Below, piece by piece: positions 1,973 to 20,533 of a DNA stretch of 32,000 nucleotides. Made by a program: the position numbers and the translations under genes. The first letter of the stretch is position 1. Every line of letters begins with the position of its first letter. The DNA is from Candidatus Saccharimonadota bacterium (GTDB lineage Bacteria; Patescibacteriota; Saccharimonadia; Saccharimonadales; UBA4665), in the NCBI GenBank assembly GCA_963716945.1, contig OY970322.1, forward strand, positions 540,001 to 572,000. Reading direction: 5' to 3'. The notes below the pieces were generated by a model. The model was given only the letters and a program-made list of their open reading frames with translations. It searched no databases and had not been told where the DNA came from.

Positions 1973-3514
1973 TTAGCGGCGGTAAAGCGAGTGGTTCTTA
2001 ATCCAGCCGTGGGCGCCGCGGGTGATTTCCTGGTCGCCGTTCTGCTTGACCTTCTCCGCCAGCTGGGCGTAAGGCACGAGGGTGAAGCCGAAGGTGCTGC
2101 CCTCGCCTTCTTTGCTGCGGACCCAGAGGCTGCCGCCGTGGGCCGTGATAATGGCTTTGCTGAGGTAAAGGCCCAGGCCGGTACCGCCGATTTGGGCGCG
2201 GTTGCGGTGGTCGCGATAGAATTTAGTGAACAGGTTCGGCAGGATGCTGGTCGGGATGCCGAGGCCGAAGTCCTGGACGGTGGTTTCGACTAGGCCTTCC
2301 TGGTTGAGGTAGGTGTCGATTTTGATGACCTTGCTGGTGCCGCTGTACTTGATGGCGTTGTCGATGAGGTTGTTGATGACTTCGCGGATGCTTAACTTGT
2401 CGATGCCGACCGGCGGCAGGTCGCGGGCGATGCTGCATTTGAGGGTGATGTCGCGGACTTTGGCGCGCAGGCTGATCATTTCGATTGAACTTTTGAGCGT
2501 GCTGCTCCAATCTTCCGATTGGAGCTTGAGCTCCAGCTGGTCGTCATCGACGCGGGCGACATTCAGAATGTTATTCACAAAGTCTGTTAGCTGCTCGGCC
2601 TGGGCGCGCATTTTGAGCATAAAGCTCTTGAGCTCGGGATCGGTTATGGTTTGCCCTATTTCGTCCTCGAAAACTTCTATGTAGCCGCGCAGTAAGGTCA
2701 GCGGCGTGCGCAGTTCGTGGACGCTCAAGGCAATGAAACTGATGGCCTGGTCGTCCTGGCTGTACTCCTTGGTATGGTCAAACAGGACGATCATCGTCTC
2801 GTTGTGGTCGGGGTTGTCGCGGTTGTAGTAAGCGGCTAGGTCGAATAATCGGGCCGGGTGGTTATCGCGGACGTTAAGCCGGACCCGTTCCCACGTGGAA
2901 ACGGCCGTGGCGGTTTTGGTCTTGACGGATTTTAGCCAGCTGTCAAAGGTGGCCTCGCTGGGAAACGACATGTCCATTACCATATAGACGTTCTTGCCGA
3001 CCATGTCGCCAGCGGCGATGCCGGTGTAGCGCGCGGCGGCTTCGTTGGCGTAGCGGATGGTTTCGGTGGCGTCCATCAGGATGAGCGGCAGCGGCAGGTT
3101 CTGGGCGATGAAATTTTCATGCAAATCACTAGCGTGGCGGTTGAGTTCCTGCTTGGCCTGGTCGGCGCTGCTGACCAGTTGGTAAATCCGGGCCGTCAGG
3201 TTGGCCACCAGGTCGCGTCCGAGGTGCAGGCTCTCGAAGTTGGGCGCGGCCGTTCCCTGGTCGGTCGGGCTGAGGTGCAGGACGGCCTGCCAGACGGCCT
3301 TGAGCGGCTGGGTCAGATGGTTCCCGAGGCTGGTGGCTATAAGAGTGGTTTCCAAGCCGGCTAGGACTACGAGCAGGACAAGCAGCTCCGGGCCGTTCAA
3401 TCCCAATATCTTGTTGCCTAGCCACCAGCCGCCGATTAGGACGCCGTTATCGATCAGAACGACTATAAATATACGCAGCTTGGTCTGGCGGATGAGGTTG
3501 TGCAGGTAGTCCAT
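1973..3514 (-). CDS. Membrane sensor histidine kinase (2 TM helices, PAS, HisKA, HATPase_c)
   Basis: H-box SVHELRTPLT, N-box LIDNAIKY, G1 DFGLGI, G2 GTGLGL. A PAS-like segment (PLILMDATETIRYANEAAARYTGI) and two N-terminal hydrophobic helices are present. Confidence 0.9.
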   Translation of the reverse strand: MDYLHNLIRQTKLRIFIVVLIDNGVLIGGWWLGNKILGLNGPELLVLLVVLAGLETTLIATSLGNHLTQPLKAVWQAVLHLSPTDQGTAAPNFESLHLGRDLVANLTARIYQLVSSADQAKQELNRHASDLHENFIAQNLPLPLILMDATETIRYANEAAARYTGIAAGDMVGKNVYMVMDMSFPSEATFDSWLKSVKTKTATAVSTWERVRLNVRDNHPARLFDLAAYYNRDNPDHNETMIVLFDHTKEYSQDDQAISFIALSVHELRTPLTLLRGYIEVFEDEIGQTITDPELKSFMLKMRAQAEQLTDFVNNILNVARVDDDQLELKLQSEDWSSTLKSSIEMISLRAKVRDITLKCSIARDLPPVGIDKLSIREVINNLIDNAIKYSGTSKVIKIDTYLNQEGLVETTVQDFGLGIPTSILPNLFTKFYRDHRNRAQIGGTGLGLYLSKAIITAHGGSLWVRSKEGEGSTFGFTLVPYAQLAEKVKQNGDQEITRGAHGWIKNHSLYRR

Positions 3515-3520
3515 GGGGGC

Positions 3521-4852
3521 TTAAGGCGTGTAGCTGACCTTGCCAGTGCTGCTGACGGCGGTTAACCAGGTTTGGCCGGCATTGAATTTAATCGGCTGGC
3601 CGGCGCCGTTGGCGAATGTGATTTGGCTGCCGTTGGTGCTTTTGGTCCAGGTACCGGTAGTTACCGTACCGTCTTGAAATACATAGACCGGCCCGCTGCC
3701 GATGCTGGCATAGTCCGAATAATAGGCGCCGCTGCTGTCCAGGGCGCCGTTGCTCTCCGGGATAACCATGGCCACGACTACCCGCGGGCTGATCTGGGTA
3801 TTGGTGTTGGCATCGATCTGGGGTGCGCCTCCTTCGCTGCGGTTATAGGTGTTGGTAGCTGCCACGTAGTCATAGTGGACATTGTAGGCGGCTCCGGAAA
3901 GCGTCAGATTGATGCTGCCGGCTGTCGGCTGCTTGACCGCGGCGTCGGCCTTGCGCGGGAAGCCGGTGAAGTTGCTGCTGGTGTAGCCTTTGCTGTCTTC
4001 TAGCTGGTTGAGCCTGGCTATTGAGGTATAGACGTTGTGCGGTGCCTGGCGGCTGGAGATGCGCTGGTAATAAGCACTGTTGGCGAACTGGTCCAAGTCG
4101 CGGGCGTTCCAGCCTTTCAAATCGATTAAGGCGTCGGGGCTGCCGCCGACATGAGCGTAGCCGGCATCAAAGCCCAAGGCCCACTGAATATAGTACGGCC
4201 GGGCGCTGCGGATCGGGCCGACGCTGCTGGGGCTGGTGTCCTGATAAAGGGCCAAGAACCGGGTAATCCCGCCTTCGGCAACAGCCTCGAACACTACCAT
4301 AGCCTGGCCTAATCCTGATTGCGGCCTGGCCTCGGTGCTGTTCTCGATCATGACGCCGGTTACCGGCAATTTGTTAAGGCTGGGGTCGACCTGCAGGCCG
4401 CTGAGGTTCGAGGCGACGGTCGAGGGAGCTTGCGGTTTAATAACTTGTTTGACGGCGTGAGGAGCGGGGTTTTTGGCATGGTGGCGGGTGGCTATAAATA
4501 GGCCGCCAGCCAAGCCCAGCAAGACCACGACGGCGATGACTGACCACTCTTTCTTGCCGGGGGGCCAGCTCAGCTTAAGCTTTTGGCGCCAGCCTGATGC
4601 GGCAGGCTCTTCGGCCGGAGTGGCGGCCTGCTCTCGGATTGCCTCCGGACTTTCTCCGGTCGGTTGAGGCTGTTCCTCGGTTACTGCTTCGCCATCCGAA
4701 ACTAGCTCCATATCCTCGTCTTCATCGGGCGCGAGGCTACGGTCCGTTTCAACCGTGGTCGGCTGCTTGGTTTCCGGGAAAATATACGGCTTATTTTGGC
4801 CGGATTCGGCCGGCCGTTTAGACGGCCTGAAGTCGCTATCCATACTCTCCAT
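3521..4852 (-). CDS. DUF3048 (YerB-like) domain protein, membrane-anchored, with an acidic disordered N-terminus
   Basis: GVMIENSTEARPQSGL...VFEAVAEGGITRFLALYQD...PIRSARPYY is the characteristic DUF3048 core. One TM segment (WSVIAVVVLLGLAGGLFIA) is present. The true start may be the ATG at 4843 (see the promoter at 4851..4859). Confidence 0.8.
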   Translation of the reverse strand: MESMDSDFRPSKRPAESGQNKPYIFPETKQPTTVETDRSLAPDEDEDMELVSDGEAVTEEQPQPTGESPEAIREQAATPAEEPAASGWRQKLKLSWPPGKKEWSVIAVVVLLGLAGGLFIATRHHAKNPAPHAVKQVIKPQAPSTVASNLSGLQVDPSLNKLPVTGVMIENSTEARPQSGLGQAMVVFEAVAEGGITRFLALYQDTSPSSVGPIRSARPYYIQWALGFDAGYAHVGGSPDALIDLKGWNARDLDQFANSAYYQRISSRQAPHNVYTSIARLNQLEDSKGYTSSNFTGFPRKADAAVKQPTAGSINLTLSGAAYNVHYDYVAATNTYNRSEGGAPQIDANTNTQISPRVVVAMVIPESNGALDSSGAYYSDYASIGSGPVYVFQDGTVTTGTWTKSTNGSQITFANGAGQPIKFNAGQTWLTAVSSTGKVSYTP

Positions 4853-4859
4853 TGTAACA
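4851..4859 (-). promoter_or_regulatory. Extended -10 element TGTTACAAT, 7 nt upstream of the second in-frame ATG (4843) of the DUF3048 gene
   Basis: The minus strand reads gtTGTTACAATggagagtATG. The same 9-mer and spacing occur at 19217..19209. It overlaps the first ATG (4852), which argues for 4843 as the start. Confidence 0.35.
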
Positions 4860-4872
4860 ACGCTTATGCTAA

Positions 4873-6309
4873 TCAGCTAGAGGCTAAGGCCGACAATTGG
4901 CTGTCAAGGCGCGACAGGCTGCGCTCTTTGCCTAGCACGGCCAGGCTGTCGGCCAAGGCCGGACTGGCTGCCGCCTGGGTGGTAGCGATCCGGATCAGAC
5001 TGAATAGGACCACCGGTTTTTGGCCGGTTTGTTCAAGCAGGCGGTTGAGGCGCTGCGTCAGGTCGCCCGCCGAGAAATCACTGTCTGCCAGCGCGGCTTT
5101 AGCCTGCTCCAGCATAGCTTTCAAATCGTTGTTTGACAGCTTCTTAAGCTGTTTGTGCTGGCCGATAAGCTCCGGATTGACCGGCCGGTCGACGAAGAAG
5201 AAATCTGTCAGCTCCGGCAGTTCGGCGAAGTATTTGAGGCGTTCCTGGACCAGACCGAGCACTTGCTTTTTGTAGGCCTCGTCGTAATCGGCAGCTTCGG
5301 GGGGCCAGAACCCGGCAACGTGTTCATACAGGTTATCCGGCGCCATCTGCCTTATCCAGACACCGTTCATCCAGCTTAGGCGGCGCTCATCGAAATGCGC
5401 CCCGCCGCGTTGGACCCGGTCGAGCCTGAACTTGTCGATTAACTCCTGACGCGAAAAAATCTCCTGTTCGGTACCGTCATTCCAGCCCAGGCTGGCGATG
5501 AAGTTAACCAGCGCGTCCGGCAGGAAGCCGTCGCGAATGTAGTCCAGTACGTCTTTGGCGCCATCGCGTTTGCTGAGCTTCTTCTTGCCGTCCGGACCCA
5601 GGATGTGCGGTACGGTCGCCAGTATTGGCGGCTCCAGCCCCAGCGCTTCGTAAAGATTTAGGTAATTCGGCACACTGGCCGTAAACTCTTGGCCGCGGAT
5701 GACGTGCGTGATGCGCATTTCGCTGTCGTCGACGATATGGGCGAAGTTATAGGTCGGGTAGCCGTCGGACTTGATAAGGATGAAGTCGTCTACTACCTCG
5801 GGCCCGGTCGATAGGTCGCCCAGTATGGCGTCGTGCCATTTGTAGGGCTTGGGCTCCGATTTGAAACGCAGCGGCTGGCTGCCGTCCCAGGCCGGCGGCG
5901 CATCGGGCCGGTGGTTACGGTATAAGAAGGGTCGCTTGCCGGCTTGGGCCTGCTCGCGGAAGGCCTGCACTTCCTCCGGCGTATAGGGATCGGCATAAGC
6001 CCGCCCGGCCTCAACCAGTTTGCGTGCCCAGGTCTGGTAAACATCAAGCCGTTCACTCTGGCGGTACGGTCCGTATGGTCCTTCCTTGTCAGGCCCTTCG
6101 TCATAGTCCAGGCCGAGTGCCCGCAAACTATCCAGGACGTGACGGTCGGAGCCGGCGGCTTCACGCTTTTTGTCGGTGTCTTCCAGCCGCAGTACGAACT
6201 GGCCGCGGCCCTGCCGGGCTACTAGCCACGCAAAAACGGCGGTCCTGATACCGCCGACATGCAAAAATCCGGTCGGACTGGGCGCGAAACGGGTACGCAC
6301 TGTTTTCAT
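4873..6309 (-). CDS. gltX: Glutamate--tRNA ligase
   Basis: RFAPSPTGFLHVGGIRTA (HIGH-type motif), KLSKRDG (KMSKS-type motif), and full-length class I GluRS architecture. Confidence 0.93.
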   Translation of the reverse strand: MKTVRTRFAPSPTGFLHVGGIRTAVFAWLVARQGRGQFVLRLEDTDKKREAAGSDRHVLDSLRALGLDYDEGPDKEGPYGPYRQSERLDVYQTWARKLVEAGRAYADPYTPEEVQAFREQAQAGKRPFLYRNHRPDAPPAWDGSQPLRFKSEPKPYKWHDAILGDLSTGPEVVDDFILIKSDGYPTYNFAHIVDDSEMRITHVIRGQEFTASVPNYLNLYEALGLEPPILATVPHILGPDGKKKLSKRDGAKDVLDYIRDGFLPDALVNFIASLGWNDGTEQEIFSRQELIDKFRLDRVQRGGAHFDERRLSWMNGVWIRQMAPDNLYEHVAGFWPPEAADYDEAYKKQVLGLVQERLKYFAELPELTDFFFVDRPVNPELIGQHKQLKKLSNNDLKAMLEQAKAALADSDFSAGDLTQRLNRLLEQTGQKPVVLFSLIRIATTQAAASPALADSLAVLGKERSLSRLDSQLSALASS

Positions 6310-14131: not shown

Positions 14132-14928
14132 ACATCTATTGTAACAGATACGGGACAGTGGTCTGAGCCCATGACGCCGGCGTGGATAGCGGCGGCTTTG
14201 ACCTTGGCTTTGAGGCTGGCACTAACCAAAAAATAATCTATGCGCCAGCCGACGTTGCGTTCCCGCGACTTGGCGAAATGGCTCCACCAGGTGTAGTAGC
14301 CGTTGCCCTGTTTGAACAATCGGAAAGTATCGATGAAGCCGGCGTCGATGAAGGCCTGGAAGCCGGCCCGCTCTTCGTCGGTGAAGCCTTTTTTGCCCCG
14401 GTTCGGCTTGGGATTGGCCAGGTCGTCTTCGGTATGGGCGACATTGAGGTCGCCGCAGAAAACTACCGGCTTGATCTGCTCCAGCTGCTTACAGTAAGCC
14501 AGGAAGGCCGGGTCCCAATGCTTGTGCCTGAGGGGAATCCGGCTGAGGTCGTCCTTGGCGTTGGGCGTGTAAACGGTGACGACCCAGAACTTGTCGAACT
14601 CGGCGGCGATTACCCTGCCCTCTAGATTGGGGTCGCCGTAGGTGTCGCCGCTGACTTTGTACTTGTTGATAATATCCTTGGGGAAGCCGTTCACGACTTG
14701 CAGGGGCGTGACTTTGCTCAGGATGGCCGTGCCGGAATATCCCGGCTTCTCGGCCGAATACCAGAGGGCGTCATAGCCGTCGAGCTCAAACTCTATTTGC
14801 TCGGGCTTGGCCTTAATCTCCTGCAAGCACAGAATGTCGGGCTGCTCTTGGTCGAGGAACGGCTGGAACAGGCCCTTTTTGGTAACCGCCCGGATGCCGT
14901 TCACGTTCCATGAATATAGCTTCAGCAT
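14128..14928 (-). CDS. xth: Exodeoxyribonuclease III (AP endonuclease)
   Basis: N-terminal SWNVNGIRA, LCLQEIK, GDLNVAH and SDHCPV are the full ExoIII/EEP motif set. Confidence 0.92.
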   Translation of the reverse strand: MLKLYSWNVNGIRAVTKKGLFQPFLDQEQPDILCLQEIKAKPEQIEFELDGYDALWYSAEKPGYSGTAILSKVTPLQVVNGFPKDIINKYKVSGDTYGDPNLEGRVIAAEFDKFWVVTVYTPNAKDDLSRIPLRHKHWDPAFLAYCKQLEQIKPVVFCGDLNVAHTEDDLANPKPNRGKKGFTDEERAGFQAFIDAGFIDTFRLFKQGNGYYTWWSHFAKSRERNVGWRIDYFLVSASLKAKVKAAAIHAGVMGSDHCPVSVTIDV

Positions 14929-15741: not shown

Positions 15742-16455
15742 ATGGATAGAAAAGCTATTGAGGCTAGTGTTATCTACCCTGATGTGGTAGACCGACACTT
15801 TGATGGCGGTTATTACTCGCCTGATGTCCTGGCTGCCTGGGAAGCTATAAAGGGCTTACCTATCGAAGAAAGGGCGCAGGTATATAAAGACGGCTTTAAT
15901 GGGGCTTGGGAGTTAGCGCAAACCCTAGTCCGTTCTGAAAGATATGATAAGGCGGATGAAAGTATAGACCTTTCAACCGAAGGACTTGGCGTAATAGGTT
16001 TGAAGGCGACTGAGCATGATAATTTGAAGCCGCATTATGGGCTGCTATATAGAGACTTAAGGGTAACGGTTAAGGCGTTTCGGCCCGAACATCGTGCCCG
16101 CCTAATTATGTTAGGTAATACCACGCAACCGAGCAATCCACGTGCTTTCTCTGTGATGCGTCATTTATGGCAGACAGGGTTTGCCGAGCGCCCTCCGAAC
16201 GTAAAAGTGAGCGTTCACCCGCAGGGCTGGAATGATTCCTTATCGGCCTGGGAAGATGGAAGCTTTTTTAGACACCTAACAGTTCCGCCGTTAGAATATG
16301 GGGCAGAAGAATATACACCGGAAGATAAAGAGGATATGCTTGATCTAGATATTCTTAGATTGCTTGATTGGACAGAGACACTGCTGGTGGCACACCAGGC
16401 TATGAATACGCCTCCAGACGGATTAGAGGATTCTGGTACTGCAGAGTTAAGTTGA
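15742..16455 (+). CDS. Hypothetical cytoplasmic acidic protein, 237 aa, no recognisable family; compositionally atypical (low GC)
   Basis: The ORF has codon usage unlike its neighbours, with repeated AGA/AGG Arg and TTA Leu codons. Hand counts give about 42-55% G+C per 60-nt line. It has no TM segment or signal peptide. Confidence 0.65.
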   Translation: MDRKAIEASVIYPDVVDRHFDGGYYSPDVLAAWEAIKGLPIEERAQVYKDGFNGAWELAQTLVRSERYDKADESIDLSTEGLGVIGLKATEHDNLKPHYGLLYRDLRVTVKAFRPEHRARLIMLGNTTQPSNPRAFSVMRHLWQTGFAERPPNVKVSVHPQGWNDSLSAWEDGSFFRHLTVPPLEYGAEEYTPEDKEDMLDLDILRLLDWTETLLVAHQAMNTPPDGLEDSGTAELS

Positions 16456-16469
16456 TCGCTGCCGGCTGA

Positions 16470-18842
16470 TTAACTCTGGATGACTAGGTCCGGCGCATCC
16501 AGGGTGACTTTGTCGCCGGGCTTGGCCTCGCCGCGCAGGATTTTCTGAGCGACAGTGTCTTCGACGGCCCGCTGCAGTACTCGGCGCATCGGGCGGGCGC
16601 CGAGGCGCGGGTCATTGCCTTGCTCAACGATCTTTTGGATGGCCGCCGGCGTCAGTTCAAGTGAGATATTCTGGCTAGCCAGAGTTTCGTTGACTTCGCC
16701 GACCATCAACTGGACTACTTGGGCCAGCTCCTCCGGCTTAAGCGGCCTGAACAGCACCAGCTCATCGAAACGGTTAACCAGTTCGGGTTTAAACTGCCCG
16801 CTGTTGATCAGCTCGTCGGTTATTTGCTCCGAGAAACTTTCCAAGGCTTCACCGCGGCTGATATGGTCGCGGATGGTCGCCGCGCCGGCGTTGCTGGTGG
16901 CGATGATTACACAATCCTTGAATGATGCCGAGCGGCCCGACATGTCGGTCAGCTGGCCCTCGTCAAGCAGCTGCAGCAGGAGGTTCAAGATATTGGGGTG
17001 GGCTTTTTCGATTTCATCCAGCAGGACTACGGCGAAAGGCTGTTGGCGAACGGACATCAACAGGCTGGCCGTGTCGGCCTCGCCGGTAGACAGCAGGCGC
17101 TGGACATCATCCGGCTGCTGGTATTCGCTCATATCCAAGCGAATCATGGCCGATTCCGAACCGAAATAGGTCGCGGCGACCGACTTGGCCAGTTCGGTCT
17201 TACCGACGCCCGTCGGCCCGAGAAACAGGAAGCTGCCAATCGGCCGGCGCGGGTTGGTGACACCGGCCCGGGCCCGCCGCAAGGCATTGGAAACAGCGCT
17301 GACGGCATGGGTCTGGTTAATCATGCGCCGGTGGATATTGTCTTCCAAGTGGAGCAAGGAATCGGCCTCGACCGGCGCGGCACTTTCGGCTTTGACGCCG
17401 CGGGTTTGCTCAATGGCGCGCTGGACGCTGGCTGCGGTGAGGGCGGAATTCTCGCTGTGGGTGACGGCTTGTTCAAGCAGCTTAATGGCTTTGCCCGGGT
17501 AAGCCTCGTCCTGTTCGTAGCGGCCGCTTAGCCGGTAGGCTTCGTGCAGGGCTTCGTAGGCTACCAGAATGTGGTGGCGCCGTTCCAGGCTGATAGCCGT
17601 ATCTTCTAGGATGCGCATAATGCCGTCTTCCGGCAGTTCTTGCAAGACTACCGGCGTTAGTTGTCCGGCCAGGCTCTGGTTCTTGGTCTTGAGCCGCTGG
17701 TAGTCGCTTGGCGACAAGGCCAATATAATCGGCACCGAACGGGCTTGGATAATTGATAGTAGGATTTGCGACGCGTCAAATGATCCTGGTCCGTCGTTGA
17801 AAAATAGCTGGGCGTCATCCAGGAACAGAATGATGTGGCCGGCTCTTGCCGCTTCGTTGCAGAGGCTGAGCATGATCTGTTCCAGCTCACCCGGCTGCTG
17901 GGCGTGCGAGGTGATGTTGGTAGCATTGAGGCCGACTATCTGGTGGTAGGCCAGGCTCGGCACGGTGTTGCCTTCGATCAGGCGCTGGGCCAGCGCGTAG
18001 ACGCTCTGGCTCTTACCGATACCGTCGGCACCGATTAGCACGACGGCCGCGGCCCGGTTATTAAAAGCCGCCTCAATCGCCAGGACGCCGTCGGATTTGG
18101 TCAGCCAGCCGAAATGCGCGCCATGGTTGGCGATAGACAGGCTGATGTTTTCGCCGAACCGGTCCAGTAGCGGCGTAAACCCGAAAGCCCAGTCCCGGCC
18201 GATGCCGCCGAAGTCGCGTTTATCCTCGCGTTCCTCGGCCAATCCCCTGCCCAGCCAGTTGGCGACGGCTTCGACATCGGCCGGCTGGGATTTGATCTGG
18301 GCCAGCAGCTGCTGAAAACCCGGTGCCGACAGCATCAGGCCGGCGACCAGGAAACCGAGTTCAATGATCTGGCTGCCATTGTTGTCGGCTATCCGAGCTG
18401 CCAGCTGCAGAGCGTTAGCCAGTTCGGCCGGGTCGGTACCTAATTGCGAGCCGACCGCAGCTTGGTCCAGCAACAAGTGGTTCAAGAAGAAAAATGCCTG
18501 CCAGTGGTTGTTAATCGCCTGCCACACGGCCTGCGGCTGCTGTGGCGTCTGCGGCGTCAACCTCGCCAATATATCCACTGATAACCGGCCGTTCAAGTCG
18601 TTGCCGGCCGGCGGCAAAACCGACAGTTGACGTTTCCACCAGACAGCCGGCAGGTAGCATAGCAAGCCGGGTGCCGCCAGCAGGAGTGCATAGCGCCAGC
18701 CGGCGGTGAAGCCAAGTGCCAGAGCTCCGGCGGCGGCCGCTAGGGCCAGCCCCAACAGGATTAAATAACCTGTTTTGCCGATGCGCCGGCTAAGATTCGC
18801 CTGCCGGGCTCTTGAGCTGCGCAGGTCGATTAACTCGCTCAT
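16470..18842 (-). CDS. Membrane-anchored Clp/Hsp100-family double-AAA+ ATPase, atypical: no pore-loop Tyr, degenerate D1, no ClpP loop, no M-domain
   Basis: D1 Walker A is GADGIGKS. D2 has GPTGVGKT, VVLLDEIEKAH, ATSN, NRFDE and GARPMRR. Two N-terminal TM helices are present. The ATG at 18842 overlaps the upstream TGA (ATGA); the track start at 18866 is also an ATG. Confidence 0.85.
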   Translation of the reverse strand: MSELIDLRSSRARQANLSRRIGKTGYLILLGLALAAAAGALALGFTAGWRYALLLAAPGLLCYLPAVWWKRQLSVLPPAGNDLNGRLSVDILARLTPQTPQQPQAVWQAINNHWQAFFFLNHLLLDQAAVGSQLGTDPAELANALQLAARIADNNGSQIIELGFLVAGLMLSAPGFQQLLAQIKSQPADVEAVANWLGRGLAEEREDKRDFGGIGRDWAFGFTPLLDRFGENISLSIANHGAHFGWLTKSDGVLAIEAAFNNRAAAVVLIGADGIGKSQSVYALAQRLIEGNTVPSLAYHQIVGLNATNITSHAQQPGELEQIMLSLCNEAARAGHIILFLDDAQLFFNDGPGSFDASQILLSIIQARSVPIILALSPSDYQRLKTKNQSLAGQLTPVVLQELPEDGIMRILEDTAISLERRHHILVAYEALHEAYRLSGRYEQDEAYPGKAIKLLEQAVTHSENSALTAASVQRAIEQTRGVKAESAAPVEADSLLHLEDNIHRRMINQTHAVSAVSNALRRARAGVTNPRRPIGSFLFLGPTGVGKTELAKSVAATYFGSESAMIRLDMSEYQQPDDVQRLLSTGEADTASLLMSVRQQPFAVVLLDEIEKAHPNILNLLLQLLDEGQLTDMSGRSASFKDCVIIATSNAGAATIRDHISRGEALESFSEQITDELINSGQFKPELVNRFDELVLFRPLKPEELAQVVQLMVGEVNETLASQNISLELTPAAIQKIVEQGNDPRLGARPMRRVLQRAVEDTVAQKILRGEAKPGDKVTLDAPDLVIQS

Positions 18843-19201
18843 ATTATCAACCCCGCTATGAGGCATCCGGGTATCGCTAGCGGCAGCAGCGGCCAGATGA
18901 TGACTTCCAAAATCGTTAGTAAAGCCACCGTGACCAGTACTATAAGGGCTGCCAACAGAACGAAGAAACGGACCACGAACCCGATTATCCGGCTGAAGAT
19001 ATTATCCCCCCACGCGTGGAAGCGTTCGGCCAGGCTGGCGCCCGGATAGGTGATAATCCGTCGCCAAGGCGCGAACAACGTCCGCAAGAGCTGCCTGGCC
19101 GAGAAAGCATTTGCTACTTGGTGCAGCCTAGGCCTGAAACTCTTGATTACGTGCTGCCAGCCGGAACCATACCACCAGGAGAAAAACGAGGACACAAGCA
19201 T
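18839..19201 (-). CDS. Small membrane protein, 120 aa: basic/aromatic N-terminal domain plus two C-terminal TM helices; no family recognised
   Basis: WWYGSGW and LFAPWRR motifs, with a hydrophobic C-terminus (FVVRFFVLLAALIVLVTVALLTIL and VIIWPLLPLAIPGCLIAGLII). It is translationally coupled (ATGA) to the Clp-like gene. Confidence 0.65.
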   Translation of the reverse strand: MLVSSFFSWWYGSGWQHVIKSFRPRLHQVANAFSARQLLRTLFAPWRRIITYPGASLAERFHAWGDNIFSRIIGFVVRFFVLLAALIVLVTVALLTILEVIIWPLLPLAIPGCLIAGLII

Positions 19202-19208
19202 AACCCCA

Positions 19209-19217
19209 ATTGTAACA
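19209..19217 (-). promoter_or_regulatory. Extended -10 element TGTTACAAT, 7 nt upstream of the ATG at 19201
   Basis: The minus strand reads gaagTGTTACAATtggggttATG. There is no SD and no good -35. Confidence 0.45.
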
Positions 19218-19264: not shown

Positions 19265-20533
19265 TTAATGATTCGTCAGAAAAGCTTTGAGGGCGGTGTA
19301 TGAGGGGCGCAGGGTTATCGGTGTATTGGCACCGCTGCTATCGGCGCCCGTGGCTTCGCCGGCGTTGTCTTTTGATTCGGGAGTTGGCGAAGTCAGTAAA
19401 CCGAACCAGCCGGTAGAGTCATCATGGGTCTGGTAATACATGATCCCTTTGAGCCAGGTCCCGTTGGTGCCGTCGCCGTAGCTGATCATTTTGCTATAGG
19501 CCGAGGTTATATCGGCCGCCTGGTCGGCGTAGCTGGGCGCGTAATAGCCGTCGTTAACCGAAGGCCCGTCCTCTGCTTGGACAGGATCCAGGGTAACGCC
19601 CCACTCGGTCACGTACCAGGGGGTATTGGTGAAGCCGTGGTTAACGGCGTCCTGGTGCTGGGCGATTAAACCGTCGACGCCGTTGCTATCGTTGCTGGTA
19701 TTGCTGTCGGCCCCGCCGTAGGTGTGGGTCGAGAAACCGTCAACCTGGAGATTGGGTACGCCCTTTACGCCGTTAGCATCGGCCGTGTTACTCATCGCCT
19801 TTTCCAAGTATAGCTCGGCGCCGTTAGTACAGGGGTCTTCGGCACTGCTCCAGCAAGGGTCGCCGGTCGTCATGAAGAGCAGCGGCGACGTAATCCCGCT
19901 GCCGGCGGCGTGCTTGGCATTATAGGCGGCCTCGTAGGCCTGGGCGTAGGCCTGGGCCGTCATCGTGTAGCCGGAATTGGTTAGGTATTGTTCGTTGCCG
20001 AATTCCCAAATAATGCGCGAACCGTAACTGGCGTAATGCGTCATCCAGGTCATGGCCTGGGTAGCGTTGTCAGGCACTATCACGACGGCGCTGCACAGGA
20101 GCGAGCTGTCGGAAGACATGCCGTCATCACAACCGGGCGCCATGACGGCATCGATAGCGTTGTTGGCCGCGTAGCTGCCGTCTACCGATATCCTGGCCCA
20201 CCTGAAGCCGTCGCTCAGGTATTGGTGCGTTAGCGGCGGCCCCCAGCCGATAAAGTCGTTCAAGCCGATCCACGGTACTCCCGTGTCGGTGGTACCGCCC
20301 CCGCCGCCAAACACCACGCAGCTGCCGTCGCTGGCGCCGCTGCAAGTTTTCTGGCTGGCGCCGCTGGTCAGCGTGCCGCTGTCGGCATTGAGTGACACAT
20401 AGGGCGTAGCGGCATGCGAGCCGGTCAATAAGTAGGTTCCTATGCCGGCCACGACGAGTACCGTGAGGACAGCCGTCAGCCGCTGGGTTTGTTTACTTTT
20501 GTTTAAGAAATACTGCTTGAACATGTGTCGCAC
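19265..20533 (-). CDS. Secreted or membrane-anchored glycoside hydrolase-like protein (clan GH-A-type NE and E motifs)
   Basis: An N-terminal signal/anchor (LTAVLTVLVVAGIGTYLL). IIWEFGNEQY is a candidate acid/base NE motif, and PWYVTEWGV is a candidate nucleophile Glu. The track start is GTG at 20533; the ATG at 20524 is an alternative. TGTTACACT (20561..20553) is a candidate extended -10. Confidence 0.55.
   Translation of the reverse strand: MRHMFKQYFLNKSKQTQRLTAVLTVLVVAGIGTYLLTGSHAATPYVSLNADSGTLTSGASQKTCSGASDGSCVVFGGGGGTTDTGVPWIGLNDFIGWGPPLTHQYLSDGFRWARISVDGSYAANNAIDAVMAPGCDDGMSSDSSLLCSAVVIVPDNATQAMTWMTHYASYGSRIIWEFGNEQYLTNSGYTMTAQAYAQAYEAAYNAKHAAGSGITSPLLFMTTGDPCWSSAEDPCTNGAELYLEKAMSNTADANGVKGVPNLQVDGFSTHTYGGADSNTSNDSNGVDGLIAQHQDAVNHGFTNTPWYVTEWGVTLDPVQAEDGPSVNDGYYAPSYADQAADITSAYSKMISYGDGTNGTWLKGIMYYQTHDDSTGWFGLLTSPTPESKDNAGEATGADSSGANTPITLRPSYTALKAFLTNH

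Follow-up and report, generated by a model that had tools for sequence, protein, structure and literature searches.

What can a Clp/Hsp100 motor do once its gripping loops have been deleted and it has been bolted to a membrane? The question is raised by two adjacent genes in a 32,000-nucleotide (nt) stretch of DNA (the window) from a Candidatus Saccharimonadota bacterium (contig OY970322.1, positions 540,001 to 572,000), which encode a membrane-anchored AAA+ ATPase related to ClpB and ClpC and, directly upstream, a membrane protein of 120 amino acids (aa). Patescibacteria account for much of bacterial diversity, and no role is known for the majority of their conserved proteins. An original prediction, made from the letters of the window, had described the pair as a two-component, membrane-bound machine with one active ring. 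Here, we report that the gene pair is conserved across Saccharibacteria and present in other Patescibacteria lineages, and that, as far as we found, it represents an apparently undescribed variant of the Clp/Hsp100 family. We then weigh what such a variant might do.

An Hsp100-Type ATPase with One Intact Module

The pair is encoded on the reverse strand by a 120-aa open reading frame (ORF; 18839..19201, −), followed by a long ORF that ends at 16470 (−). Within the long ORF, an ATG first occurs at 18866; we place the ATPase start at the ATG at 18842, which gives a protein of 790 aa, because an identical database protein (P0001) is 790 aa long and the ATGA overlap with the upstream gene falls there. 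Pfam assigns AAA_2 (E 3.7e-44), ClpB_D2-small (E 1.5e-24), and AAA_lid_9 (E 4.6e-8) to the product, with weak matches (AAA/P-loop) in the first AAA+ module (D1). The phmmer alignments to ClpB and ClpC span D1 and the second module (D2), a length of ~560 residues, and the AlphaFold model of the whole ATPase (mean predicted local distance difference test score, pLDDT, 78) returned ClpC and ClpB as its top Foldseek matches (E 1.4e-40). By Pfam, alignment, and Foldseek, the protein has the tandem AAA+ modules, AAA_2-type D2, and D2-small domain of a class I Clp/Hsp100 protein. The aromatic pore loops of that class, KYR in D1 and GYVG in D2, are absent.

To define the state of each motif, phmmer alignments to the solved Thermus ClpB and S. 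aureus ClpC served as references, and family statistics were taken from four aligned groups: 120 close homologs, 38 family representatives, 102 broader Patescibacteria relatives, and 91 canonical ClpC/ClpB proteins. At the D2 pore loop, the canonical RLIGAPPGYVGYEEGG aligned with RLLST-----GEADTAS, and the 5-aa deletion takes out the Tyr of GYVG. Aromatic residues were found at this loop in 89/91 canonical proteins versus 0/120 close homologs, 2/38 representatives, and 32/102 broader relatives. The family loop spans 15 aa, compared with 20 in canonical Clp proteins, and is polar and variable, while the neighboring D2 catalytic motifs are nearly invariant. At the D1 pore loop, canonical AKYRGEFE aligned with AQQPGELE, and an aromatic residue was present in none of the 120 close homologs, 5/38 representatives, and 8/102 broader relatives, as opposed to 90/91 canonical proteins.

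The two modules also differ in their catalytic residues. D1 of the window ATPase keeps its Walker A (GADGIGKS), which is intact in 119/120 close homologs, 32/38 representatives, 24/102 broader relatives, and 89/91 canonical proteins. Its Walker B carries DD in place of DE; among the close homologs, 100 have DD, 18 have DN, and 2 have DE. The canonical ALERRFQPV aligned with SLAGQLTPV, in which the D1 Arg fingers are lost, and an Arg anywhere in this block was seen in only 3/120 close homologs versus 91/91 canonical proteins. All of the catalytic motifs of D2 were found (GPTGVGKT, VVLLDEIEKAH, ATSNAG, NRFDE, and GARPMRR), and the Arg of NRFDE (R691) is invariant among the close homologs, with NRFD also retained in the aligned family groups. 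The original prediction had called both pore loops non-aromatic, D1 degenerate at its Walker B and finger block, and D2 catalytically complete. Each of these calls was borne out, and its conclusion that a single ring is active is well supported by the sequence, with D1 degenerate and D2 intact. These features lie far beyond chance, and hundreds of homologs conserve them.

Two further hallmarks were sought and not found, again as predicted. Between sensor-1 and the D2 Arg finger, the ClpP-docking tripeptide [ILVMF]G[FL] was detected in 0/261 family members, compared with 67/91 canonical proteins. This segment is 42 residues long in the family and 47 in canonical proteins, and the window ATPase is gapped at the position of FAGF in S. 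aureus ClpC. ClpB aligned with the ATPase in two stretches that skip residues 400-523, its M-domain, and the AlphaFold model contains no long coiled coil.

The N-terminal region accounts for the membrane anchor. Hydropathy analysis placed one strong and one weaker hydrophobic segment within residues 26-69, which AlphaFold models as a helical hairpin, consistent with the predicted pair of transmembrane (TM) helices. N-terminal hydrophobic segments were present in nearly all of 150 family representatives, so the orthologs retain this feature. The domain that follows was aligned as a family profile with the canonical ClpC N-domain (hhalign probability 97.5%, E 6.6e-12), which indicates homology and upholds the original description of it as Clp_N-like. 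Pfam Clp_N itself gave no match in the window ATPase; precomputed Clp_N matches exist for distant family members. Between the N-domain and D1 lies GGIGRDWAFGFTP, the most conserved N-terminal element of the ATPase family. It belongs to a family signature loop, the first nine residues of which (212-220) AlphaFold predicts to be disordered (pLDDT <50).

Five long relatives of the ATPase (P0284, P0291, P0317, P0260, and P0369; 1018-1231 aa) were also noted. Three matched stretches were seen in each of P0284, P0291, and P0317; P0284 keeps a PPGY-type D2 pore loop, and P0291 keeps a non-aromatic PPS-type remnant. These proteins may represent intermediate or triplicated architectures.

A Small Membrane Protein Travels with the ATPase

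We scanned GTDB species-representative genomes with the pattern [AG]RDW[AS]xG[YF][TI]P, taken from the N-terminal region of the ATPase, and obtained at least 587 confirmed stretches. The best 80 loci were tested for a small-protein homolog upstream on the same strand. The small gene directly preceded the ATPase in 77/77 testable loci, the remaining 3/80 having <270 nt upstream on the contig. Of these 77 junctions, 50 were 4-nt overlaps, 8 were 1-nt overlaps, and 12 were gaps of 0-3 nt. A reverse scan of metagenomes with the small protein located the ATPase directly downstream in 66/69 testable loci, plus one more on inspection. Among distant Patescibacteria loci, a recognizable small-gene homolog lay immediately upstream in 5/5, including one labeled Parcubacteria. 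The expectation that this gene always precedes the ATPase in relatives was thus upheld, as was the ATGA overlap, which can be read directly from the window.

In 14/150 family representatives, Berkelbacteria and "Patescibacteria group" genomes among them, the ATPase carries the small protein as an N-terminal fusion. No other available line of evidence speaks as strongly for joint action of the two proteins as this Rosetta-stone fusion. The fusion proteins contain one continuous hydrophobic stretch of 75-85 residues, and in the five examined, it fits two or four TM helices. Because this number is even, the AAA+ part would stay cytoplasmic. Judged by these gene arrangements, the small membrane protein is an obligate partner that is either co-translated with the ATPase or fused to it.

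The small-protein family comprises at least 544 proteins, all of ~120 aa, with the invariant motifs WWY..GW, LF.PW, and R..G..R. By hydropathy and charge, the N-terminal part of the window protein is basic and aromatic (net +7), as predicted, and is followed by a hydrophobic tail of 54 residues. The second half of that prediction, two C-terminal TM helices, was less clear-cut. The length and charge of the tail and the topology of the fusion proteins suggest a TM hairpin; the AlphaFold model (pLDDT 88) draws the tail as one long helix. The small protein matched nothing in Pfam or PADLOC, gave only an insignificant match in NCBIfam (E 0.045), and had no match in a sequence-profile search of the PDB, where the best Foldseek hit had an E of 1.9.

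As far as sampled, the pair is confined to Patescibacteria. Saccharibacteria-type pairs were also seen on contigs labeled Dormibacteraeota, Verrucomicrobiae, Limnocylindria, and Nevskiaceae (P0003, P0008, P0121, P0165, and P0213; L007, L079, and L084). These are probably mis-binned or mislabeled contigs of metagenome-assembled genomes.

Distinction from Canonical Clp Proteins and Other Known Systems

JGI names many homologs of the ATPase "ClpC," which raises the possibility that it is simply the lineage's ordinary ClpC. NCBIfam scores argue against any standard ClpC, ClpB, ClpA, or ClpV ortholog, as do the absent M-domain, ClpP loop, and pore-loop Tyr and the coexistence of a canonical ClpC in relatives. 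The ClpB model (TIGR03346) scored 409 bits against a cut-off of 1232, and the M-domain expected of ClpB is missing. ClpA (TIGR02639) scored 330 bits against 993, and the docking loop shared by ClpC, ClpA, and ClpE is lacking. ClpV/TssH (TIGR03345) scored 284 bits against 885, and the window contains no type VI secretion genes. Scores for ClpK and ClpG fell far under their cut-offs. In a neighbor-joining tree of D2, analyzed by best bipartitions, 89/91 canonical ClpC/ClpB proteins formed one clade that excluded all family members, in a tree built without bootstrap and with narrow sampling of canonical Clp types; an earlier neighbor-joining tree, read by most recent common ancestors, was uninformative because of a few outliers.

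Relatives in which both proteins occur also speak against an ordinary ClpC. The supplementary tables of the 2023 Cell paper on Patescibacteria genetics list, for Southlakia epibionticum, which belongs to the Saccharibacteria, a ClpC-type gene whose product combines Clp_N with UVR (SEML1_0512), clpP (SEML1_0493), and, as a separate entry, an "AAA family ATPase" (SEML1_0700) that a hypothetical gene of 384 bp (SEML1_0701) overlaps (PMC10633639). The Pfam layout of SEML1_0700 closely follows that of the window ATPase, with AAA_2 at 544-706 versus 541-702 and D2-small at 713-792 versus 709-788, so we regard SEML1_0700/0701 as a probable orthologous pair. In another Patescibacteria genome (locus L085), a canonical ClpC-type gene (Clp_N, NBD_SMAX1, AAA_2; 1-2470, −) lies divergently next to the pair (2592-5691, +). 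On this evidence from relatives, the ATPase is not the single ClpC of its lineage. The opposite finding was among the outcomes that the original prediction had named as refuting its reading; all of these were examined, and none was obtained. In transposon insertion sequencing (Tn-seq) of S. epibionticum, SEML1_0700 and SEML1_0701 received the same calls (NE/NE/GD; Table S1), that is, non-essential with a late growth defect, and read counts dropped ~2.5-fold and ~5-fold, respectively (PMC10633639). The two genes appear in the supplementary tables only; the main text is silent on them (PMC10633639).

A role in anti-phage defense can be considered alongside the ordinary-ClpC assignment. PADLOC matched D2 to DolB, the ClpB-like component of Dodola (E 3.6e-29), and this match, restricted to D2, reflects generic ClpB-D2 similarity. 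Among the neighbors, the small protein and a 422-aa ORF had no PADLOC match, and a 237-aa ORF had a single marginal one (E 0.0015). The pair sits in conserved housekeeping synteny across hundreds of species, which speaks against a defense system. With the low NCBIfam scores, the missing M and UVR domains, ClpP loop, and pore-loop Tyr, and the separate canonical ClpC, the idea that the ATPase is an ordinary ClpC or a Dodola-type defense component is already contradicted by the tests run, and we give it almost no credence.

What the ATPase shares with ClpC and ClpB is extensive: the ~560-residue homology, the Clp_N-like domain, the D1-D2 order, AAA_lid_9, a complete AAA_2-type D2, and the D2-small domain. 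It departs from them in its TM hairpin and small membrane partner, a D1 without catalytic Glu or Arg fingers, the absence of pore-loop Tyr, M-domain/UVR, and ClpP loop, the 5-aa deletion in the D2 loop, and a separate position in the D2 tree.

Torsin offers the closest likeness in function. It is a eukaryotic Clp/Hsp100-related protein of the endoplasmic reticulum and nuclear envelope that associates with membranes through an N-terminal hydrophobic region, lacks aromatic pore loops, and works with a membrane-spanning partner, LAP1 or LULL1 (PMC5425593). Torsin is thought not to thread substrates, and ClpB-type proteins require the pore-loop Tyr for translocation (PMC5425593). The absent pore loops, membrane association, and membrane-spanning partner are common to Torsin and the ATPase, but the likeness goes no further than analogy. 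Torsin contains just one AAA+ module, acts in the lumen of the endoplasmic reticulum, and is supplied with an Arg finger by its cofactor; the ATPase has two tiers, its own D2 Arg finger, and a 120-aa non-AAA partner. Membership in the Torsin family is excluded by the two modules and the D2 Arg of NRFDE, and no Torsin appeared among the 60 of 93 PDB matches to D2 that were listed.

Two other families share parts of this architecture. Like FtsH, the ATPase has a two-TM N-terminal anchor that would direct the entry face of a hexameric AAA+ ring (presumed for the ATPase) toward the cytoplasmic side of the membrane. Association with small membrane partners is likewise known for FtsH. Yet FtsH belongs to the classic AAA clade and has one module, an aromatic pore loop, and an M41 protease, none of which is found in the ATPase; Pfam reports a Clp-type architecture and no Peptidase_M41 match. 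The double Clp-type architecture recurs in SMAX1/D53, plant Clp-like repressors that are thought not to act as unfoldases. The ATPase gave weak PDB matches to SMAX1 (E 1.3e-9 in one search and 5.5e-11 in another). SMAX1/D53 proteins are soluble nuclear transcriptional regulators with neither a TM anchor nor a small membrane partner and are distant relatives of the ATPase. No description of the family was found in the open-access full-text literature searched, in agreement with the original statement that the pair was not recognized as a described system; a TM7x transcriptome paper and a 2026 host-defense preprint contained no relevant mention.

Proposed Mechanism and Alternatives

On balance, we lean toward the view that the pair is a ClpP-independent, two-subunit membrane AAA+ remodeler, driven by D2 only, that does not thread polypeptides in the canonical manner. 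The ATPase of this membrane-embedded machine is, by its sequence, derived from the ClpB/ClpC (Hsp100) family, and both genes would form one leaderless, translationally coupled operon. The small protein would reside in the membrane with its aromatic, basic N-terminal part on the cytoplasmic side. Its own TM hairpin would hold the ATPase at the cytoplasmic face, the N-domain and D1 facing toward the membrane, a topology favored by the hairpin and the positive-inside charge distribution. Because it has no catalytic Glu and no Arg fingers, D1 can at most bind nucleotide; it would bind ATP without hydrolysis and most likely act as an assembly tier, with D2 as the sole motor. Given that the ClpP loop and M-domain are missing, what is established for Hsp100 proteins implies that the ATPase can be neither a ClpP partner nor a DnaK-coupled disaggregase. 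The loss of pore-loop Tyr and the deletion in the D2 loop likewise make Clp-style polypeptide threading improbable, so the claim that the machine does not thread canonically is reasonable, though short of a demonstration. ATP turnover by D2 would then power conformational work, directed either at clients associated with the membrane or at the membrane subunits. Client contact would fall to the Clp_N-like domain together with the invariant GRDW-x-G[FY]TP loop. Such a mechanism would resemble that of Torsin with its membrane cofactors, the nearest functional analogy. We infer both the formation of a hexamer and the nature of its clients.

Several points weigh against this proposal. Physical contact between the small protein and the ATPase is deduced from genomics only, and the TM topology of the ATPase is predicted from hydropathy and AlphaFold. 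Lost pore-loop aromatics make threading unlikely rather than impossible, and a strictly conserved, complete ClpB-type D2 could serve translocation. Approximately one-third of the broader Patescibacteria relatives retain an aromatic residue in the D2-loop region, and a few retain PPGY-like remnants. The orthology of SEML1_0700/0701, termed probable above, draws on Pfam layout and gene context, not on sequence comparison. The phenotype of that pair is mild, with the depletion of the ATPase gene barely above that of canonical ClpC (~2-fold, NE) (PMC10633639).

Some of these same points would fit a motor that still threads. The pair could be a membrane-protein extractase or dislocase, akin to a protease-less FtsH or to Msp1, that draws clients from the membrane through the ring, with non-aromatic loops or the aromatics of GRDW-x-G[FY]TP at the D1 entrance replacing the lost Tyr. 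The N-terminal anchor sets the D1 entry face against the membrane, as in FtsH-type extraction, the D2 catalytic motifs are conserved as in ClpB, the signature loop carries W, F, or Y at the N-domain/D1 junction, and PPGY-like D2 loops survive in some broader relatives. Against this stand a D2 loop that is 5 residues shorter, variable, and polar, with no visible constraint, a D1 unable to hydrolyze ATP, and a signature loop for which disorder is predicted and whose place is outside the positions that line the channel. With ClpB-type translocation dependent on the pore-loop Tyr (PMC5425593), we consider extraction by threading unlikely, if deserving of serious attention. The missing pore loops would fit a motor that does not handle polypeptides at all, such as one in which 12 ATPase and 12 partner TM helices form a ring or bundle that serves as a membrane conduit, and the D2 cycle alters its conformation so as to move or gate material across or within the membrane, for example host-derived lipids or other molecules whose import these epibionts need. 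Conservation and a Gly/Ala-rich composition mark the TM parts, most of the partner lies in the membrane, the continuous 75-85-residue stretch of the fusions fits a tightly packed helix bundle, and the pair is conserved across host-dependent lineages. However, neither Pfam, NCBIfam, nor sequence and Foldseek searches of the PDB returned transporter or channel homology, the flanks of 80 loci contained no conserved transporter or lipid-handling gene, and the Southlakia Tn-seq phenotype is mild. To our knowledge, no Clp-clade AAA+ ATPase works as a conduit motor, and a conduit strikes us as quite improbable.

Retention of the Clp_N-like domain would also fit a pseudo-chaperone with a regulatory role, which would act at the membrane as a decoy, adaptor, or sequestering partner and modulate ClpC-ClpP, for instance by binding ClpC adaptors or substrates through this domain. 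The canonical ClpC-type gene that flanks the pair divergently in L085, and the coexistence of canonical ClpC and ClpP with the probable orthologous pair in S. epibionticum, would be compatible with such a role. A decoy would, however, need no strictly conserved, complete D2 ATPase site; the clpC adjacency was seen at one locus only, and the M-domain and ClpC adaptor-binding features are absent. We therefore hold regulation of this kind to be very unlikely. A bolder reading can also be stated, in which the pair is an ancient Patescibacteria machine that no longer handles polypeptides, and D2 hydrolysis acts on a 24-helix membrane assembly that remodels the membrane or moves or gates host-derived material such as lipids. 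We regard this reading as speculative and rather unlikely. If true, the pair would be a bacterial counterpart of Torsin-LAP1 and part of the unexplained cell biology of epibionts.

Promoter and Genomic Neighborhood

The original prediction had assigned the pair its own promoter, 7 nt from the small-gene ATG, and this extended −10-like element is seen in the sequence (Table 1). The box TGTTACAAT occurs three times in the window, at 19209-19217 (−), 14138-14146 (−), and 4851-4859 (−), versus 0.48 expected, and every match either falls on a gene start or precedes one by 6-7 nt. Since the box lacks a −35 element, it is missing from the output of a sigma-70 consensus scan. In virtually all of 74 related genomes, reading by eye showed a TGnTACAAT-type box or close variant immediately 5′ of the small gene. 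An automated test for TANNNT 4-12 nt upstream of the small gene scored 45/74, in part because it often chose start codons several codons too far upstream. The pair has, by its sequence, its own promoter of a leaderless type that is generic in the organism, not specific to the operon. Extended −10 promoters that give rise to leaderless transcripts thus appear to be common in these Saccharibacteria.

The neighbors of the pair in the window are ordinary (pyrH, a tRNA-Ser, and genes for an ABC ATPase and a MacB-type permease). Clustering the flanks of the 80 loci returned an ordinary Saccharibacteria synteny of ABC ATPase and MacB-type permease, pyrH, and an exonuclease-family gene, and identified no consistently linked gene besides the small gene. 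A 237-aa ORF without a Pfam family (15742-16455, +) lies between the ATPase and pyrH. Since a convergent pyrH homolog lies just downstream of the ATPase in 45/80 related loci, this ORF looks like a lineage-specific insertion. On the other side, 63 nt upstream of the small gene, a 422-aa ORF (19265-20533, −) has an N-terminal hydrophobic segment and no Pfam match; it is present in the closest relative (L001) and absent from the conserved-neighbor set. Upstream of the pair, some Saccharibacteria carry murT and gatD (lipid II amidation) in divergent orientation (L004:3577-5567, −; Southlakia SEML1_0702/0703). Among other Patescibacteria loci, a glycosyltransferase gene was seen downstream of the pair in L002, L085, and L088, and TGT was seen upstream in L002 and L088. 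A cell-envelope context of the pair is recurrent in subsets of the loci but not general.

Table 1. Coordinates of the gene pair and its elements in the window
Feature	Position	Strand	Basis or remark
Extended −10-like box TGTTACAAT, 7 nt 5′ of small-gene ATG	19209..19217	−	Leaderless-type promoter; read directly
Gene of the small partner, 120 aa; N-terminal part basic and rich in Trp/Tyr (SWWYGxGW, LFAPWRRI), C-terminal part of 54 hydrophobic residues (probable TM hairpin)	18839..19201	−	
ATGA overlap, small-gene stop/ATPase start	18839..18842	−	Read from sequence; recurs in relatives
Clp/Hsp100-like ATPase, membrane-anchored, 790 aa	16470..18842	−	ORF; P0001 100% identical; Pfam; closest solved proteins ClpB and ClpC
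Basic N-terminal segment, aa 1-25	18768..18842	−	Net +4 charge
Predicted TM hairpin, aa 26-48 and 49-69	18636..18767	−	Hydropathy; AlphaFold helices 10-47 and 49-73, pLDDT ~88
Clp_N-like all-helical N-domain, aa 83-205	18228..18596	−	hhalign; AlphaFold pLDDT ~90
Family signature loop GGIGRDWAFGFTPLLDRFG, aa 212-230, N-domain/D1 junction	18153..18209	−	Most residues invariant in the N-terminal region lie here
Degenerate D1 module, aa 255-470	17433..18080	−	ClpB/ClpC alignments, family statistics
D1 Walker A GADGIGKS	18009..18032	−	
D1 pore-loop position SHAQQPGELE	17880..17909	−	
D1 Walker B ILFLDDAQ	17808..17831	−	
D1 former Arg-finger block SLAGQLTPV	17649..17675	−	
D2 module, catalytically complete, aa 533-694	16761..17246	−	Pfam AAA_2; alignment
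D2 Walker A GPTGVGKT	17196..17219	−	
D2 shortened pore loop RLLSTGEADTASLL	17058..17099	−	
D2 Walker B VVLLDEIEKAH	16998..17030	−	
D2 sensor-1 ATSNAG	16884..16901	−	
D2 Arg finger NRFDE	16761..16775	−	
D2-small domain, aa 701-780	16503..16742	−	Pfam ClpB_D2-small
Sensor-2 GARPMRR, within D2-small domain	16581..16601	−	

Conclusions

The pair is found in at least several hundred species-level genomes, where annotations have wrongly labeled it "ClpC" or "AAA family ATPase," and should be of interest to specialists in AAA+ proteins and in the candidate phyla radiation. Its role is directly testable, as Southlakia epibionticum is genetically tractable and the probable orthologs SEML1_0700/0701 are dispensable, with a late growth defect in Tn-seq. 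The pair amounts to a natural experiment on a well-understood motor, in which D2 is intact, D1 catalysis and the gripping loops are gone, and the whole appears to be fixed to the membrane beside a small partner. Solving its role would reveal to what extent the Hsp100 scaffold lends itself to tasks other than threading. The answer could inform the mechanism of Torsin and would add a defined component to the membrane biology of epibionts.

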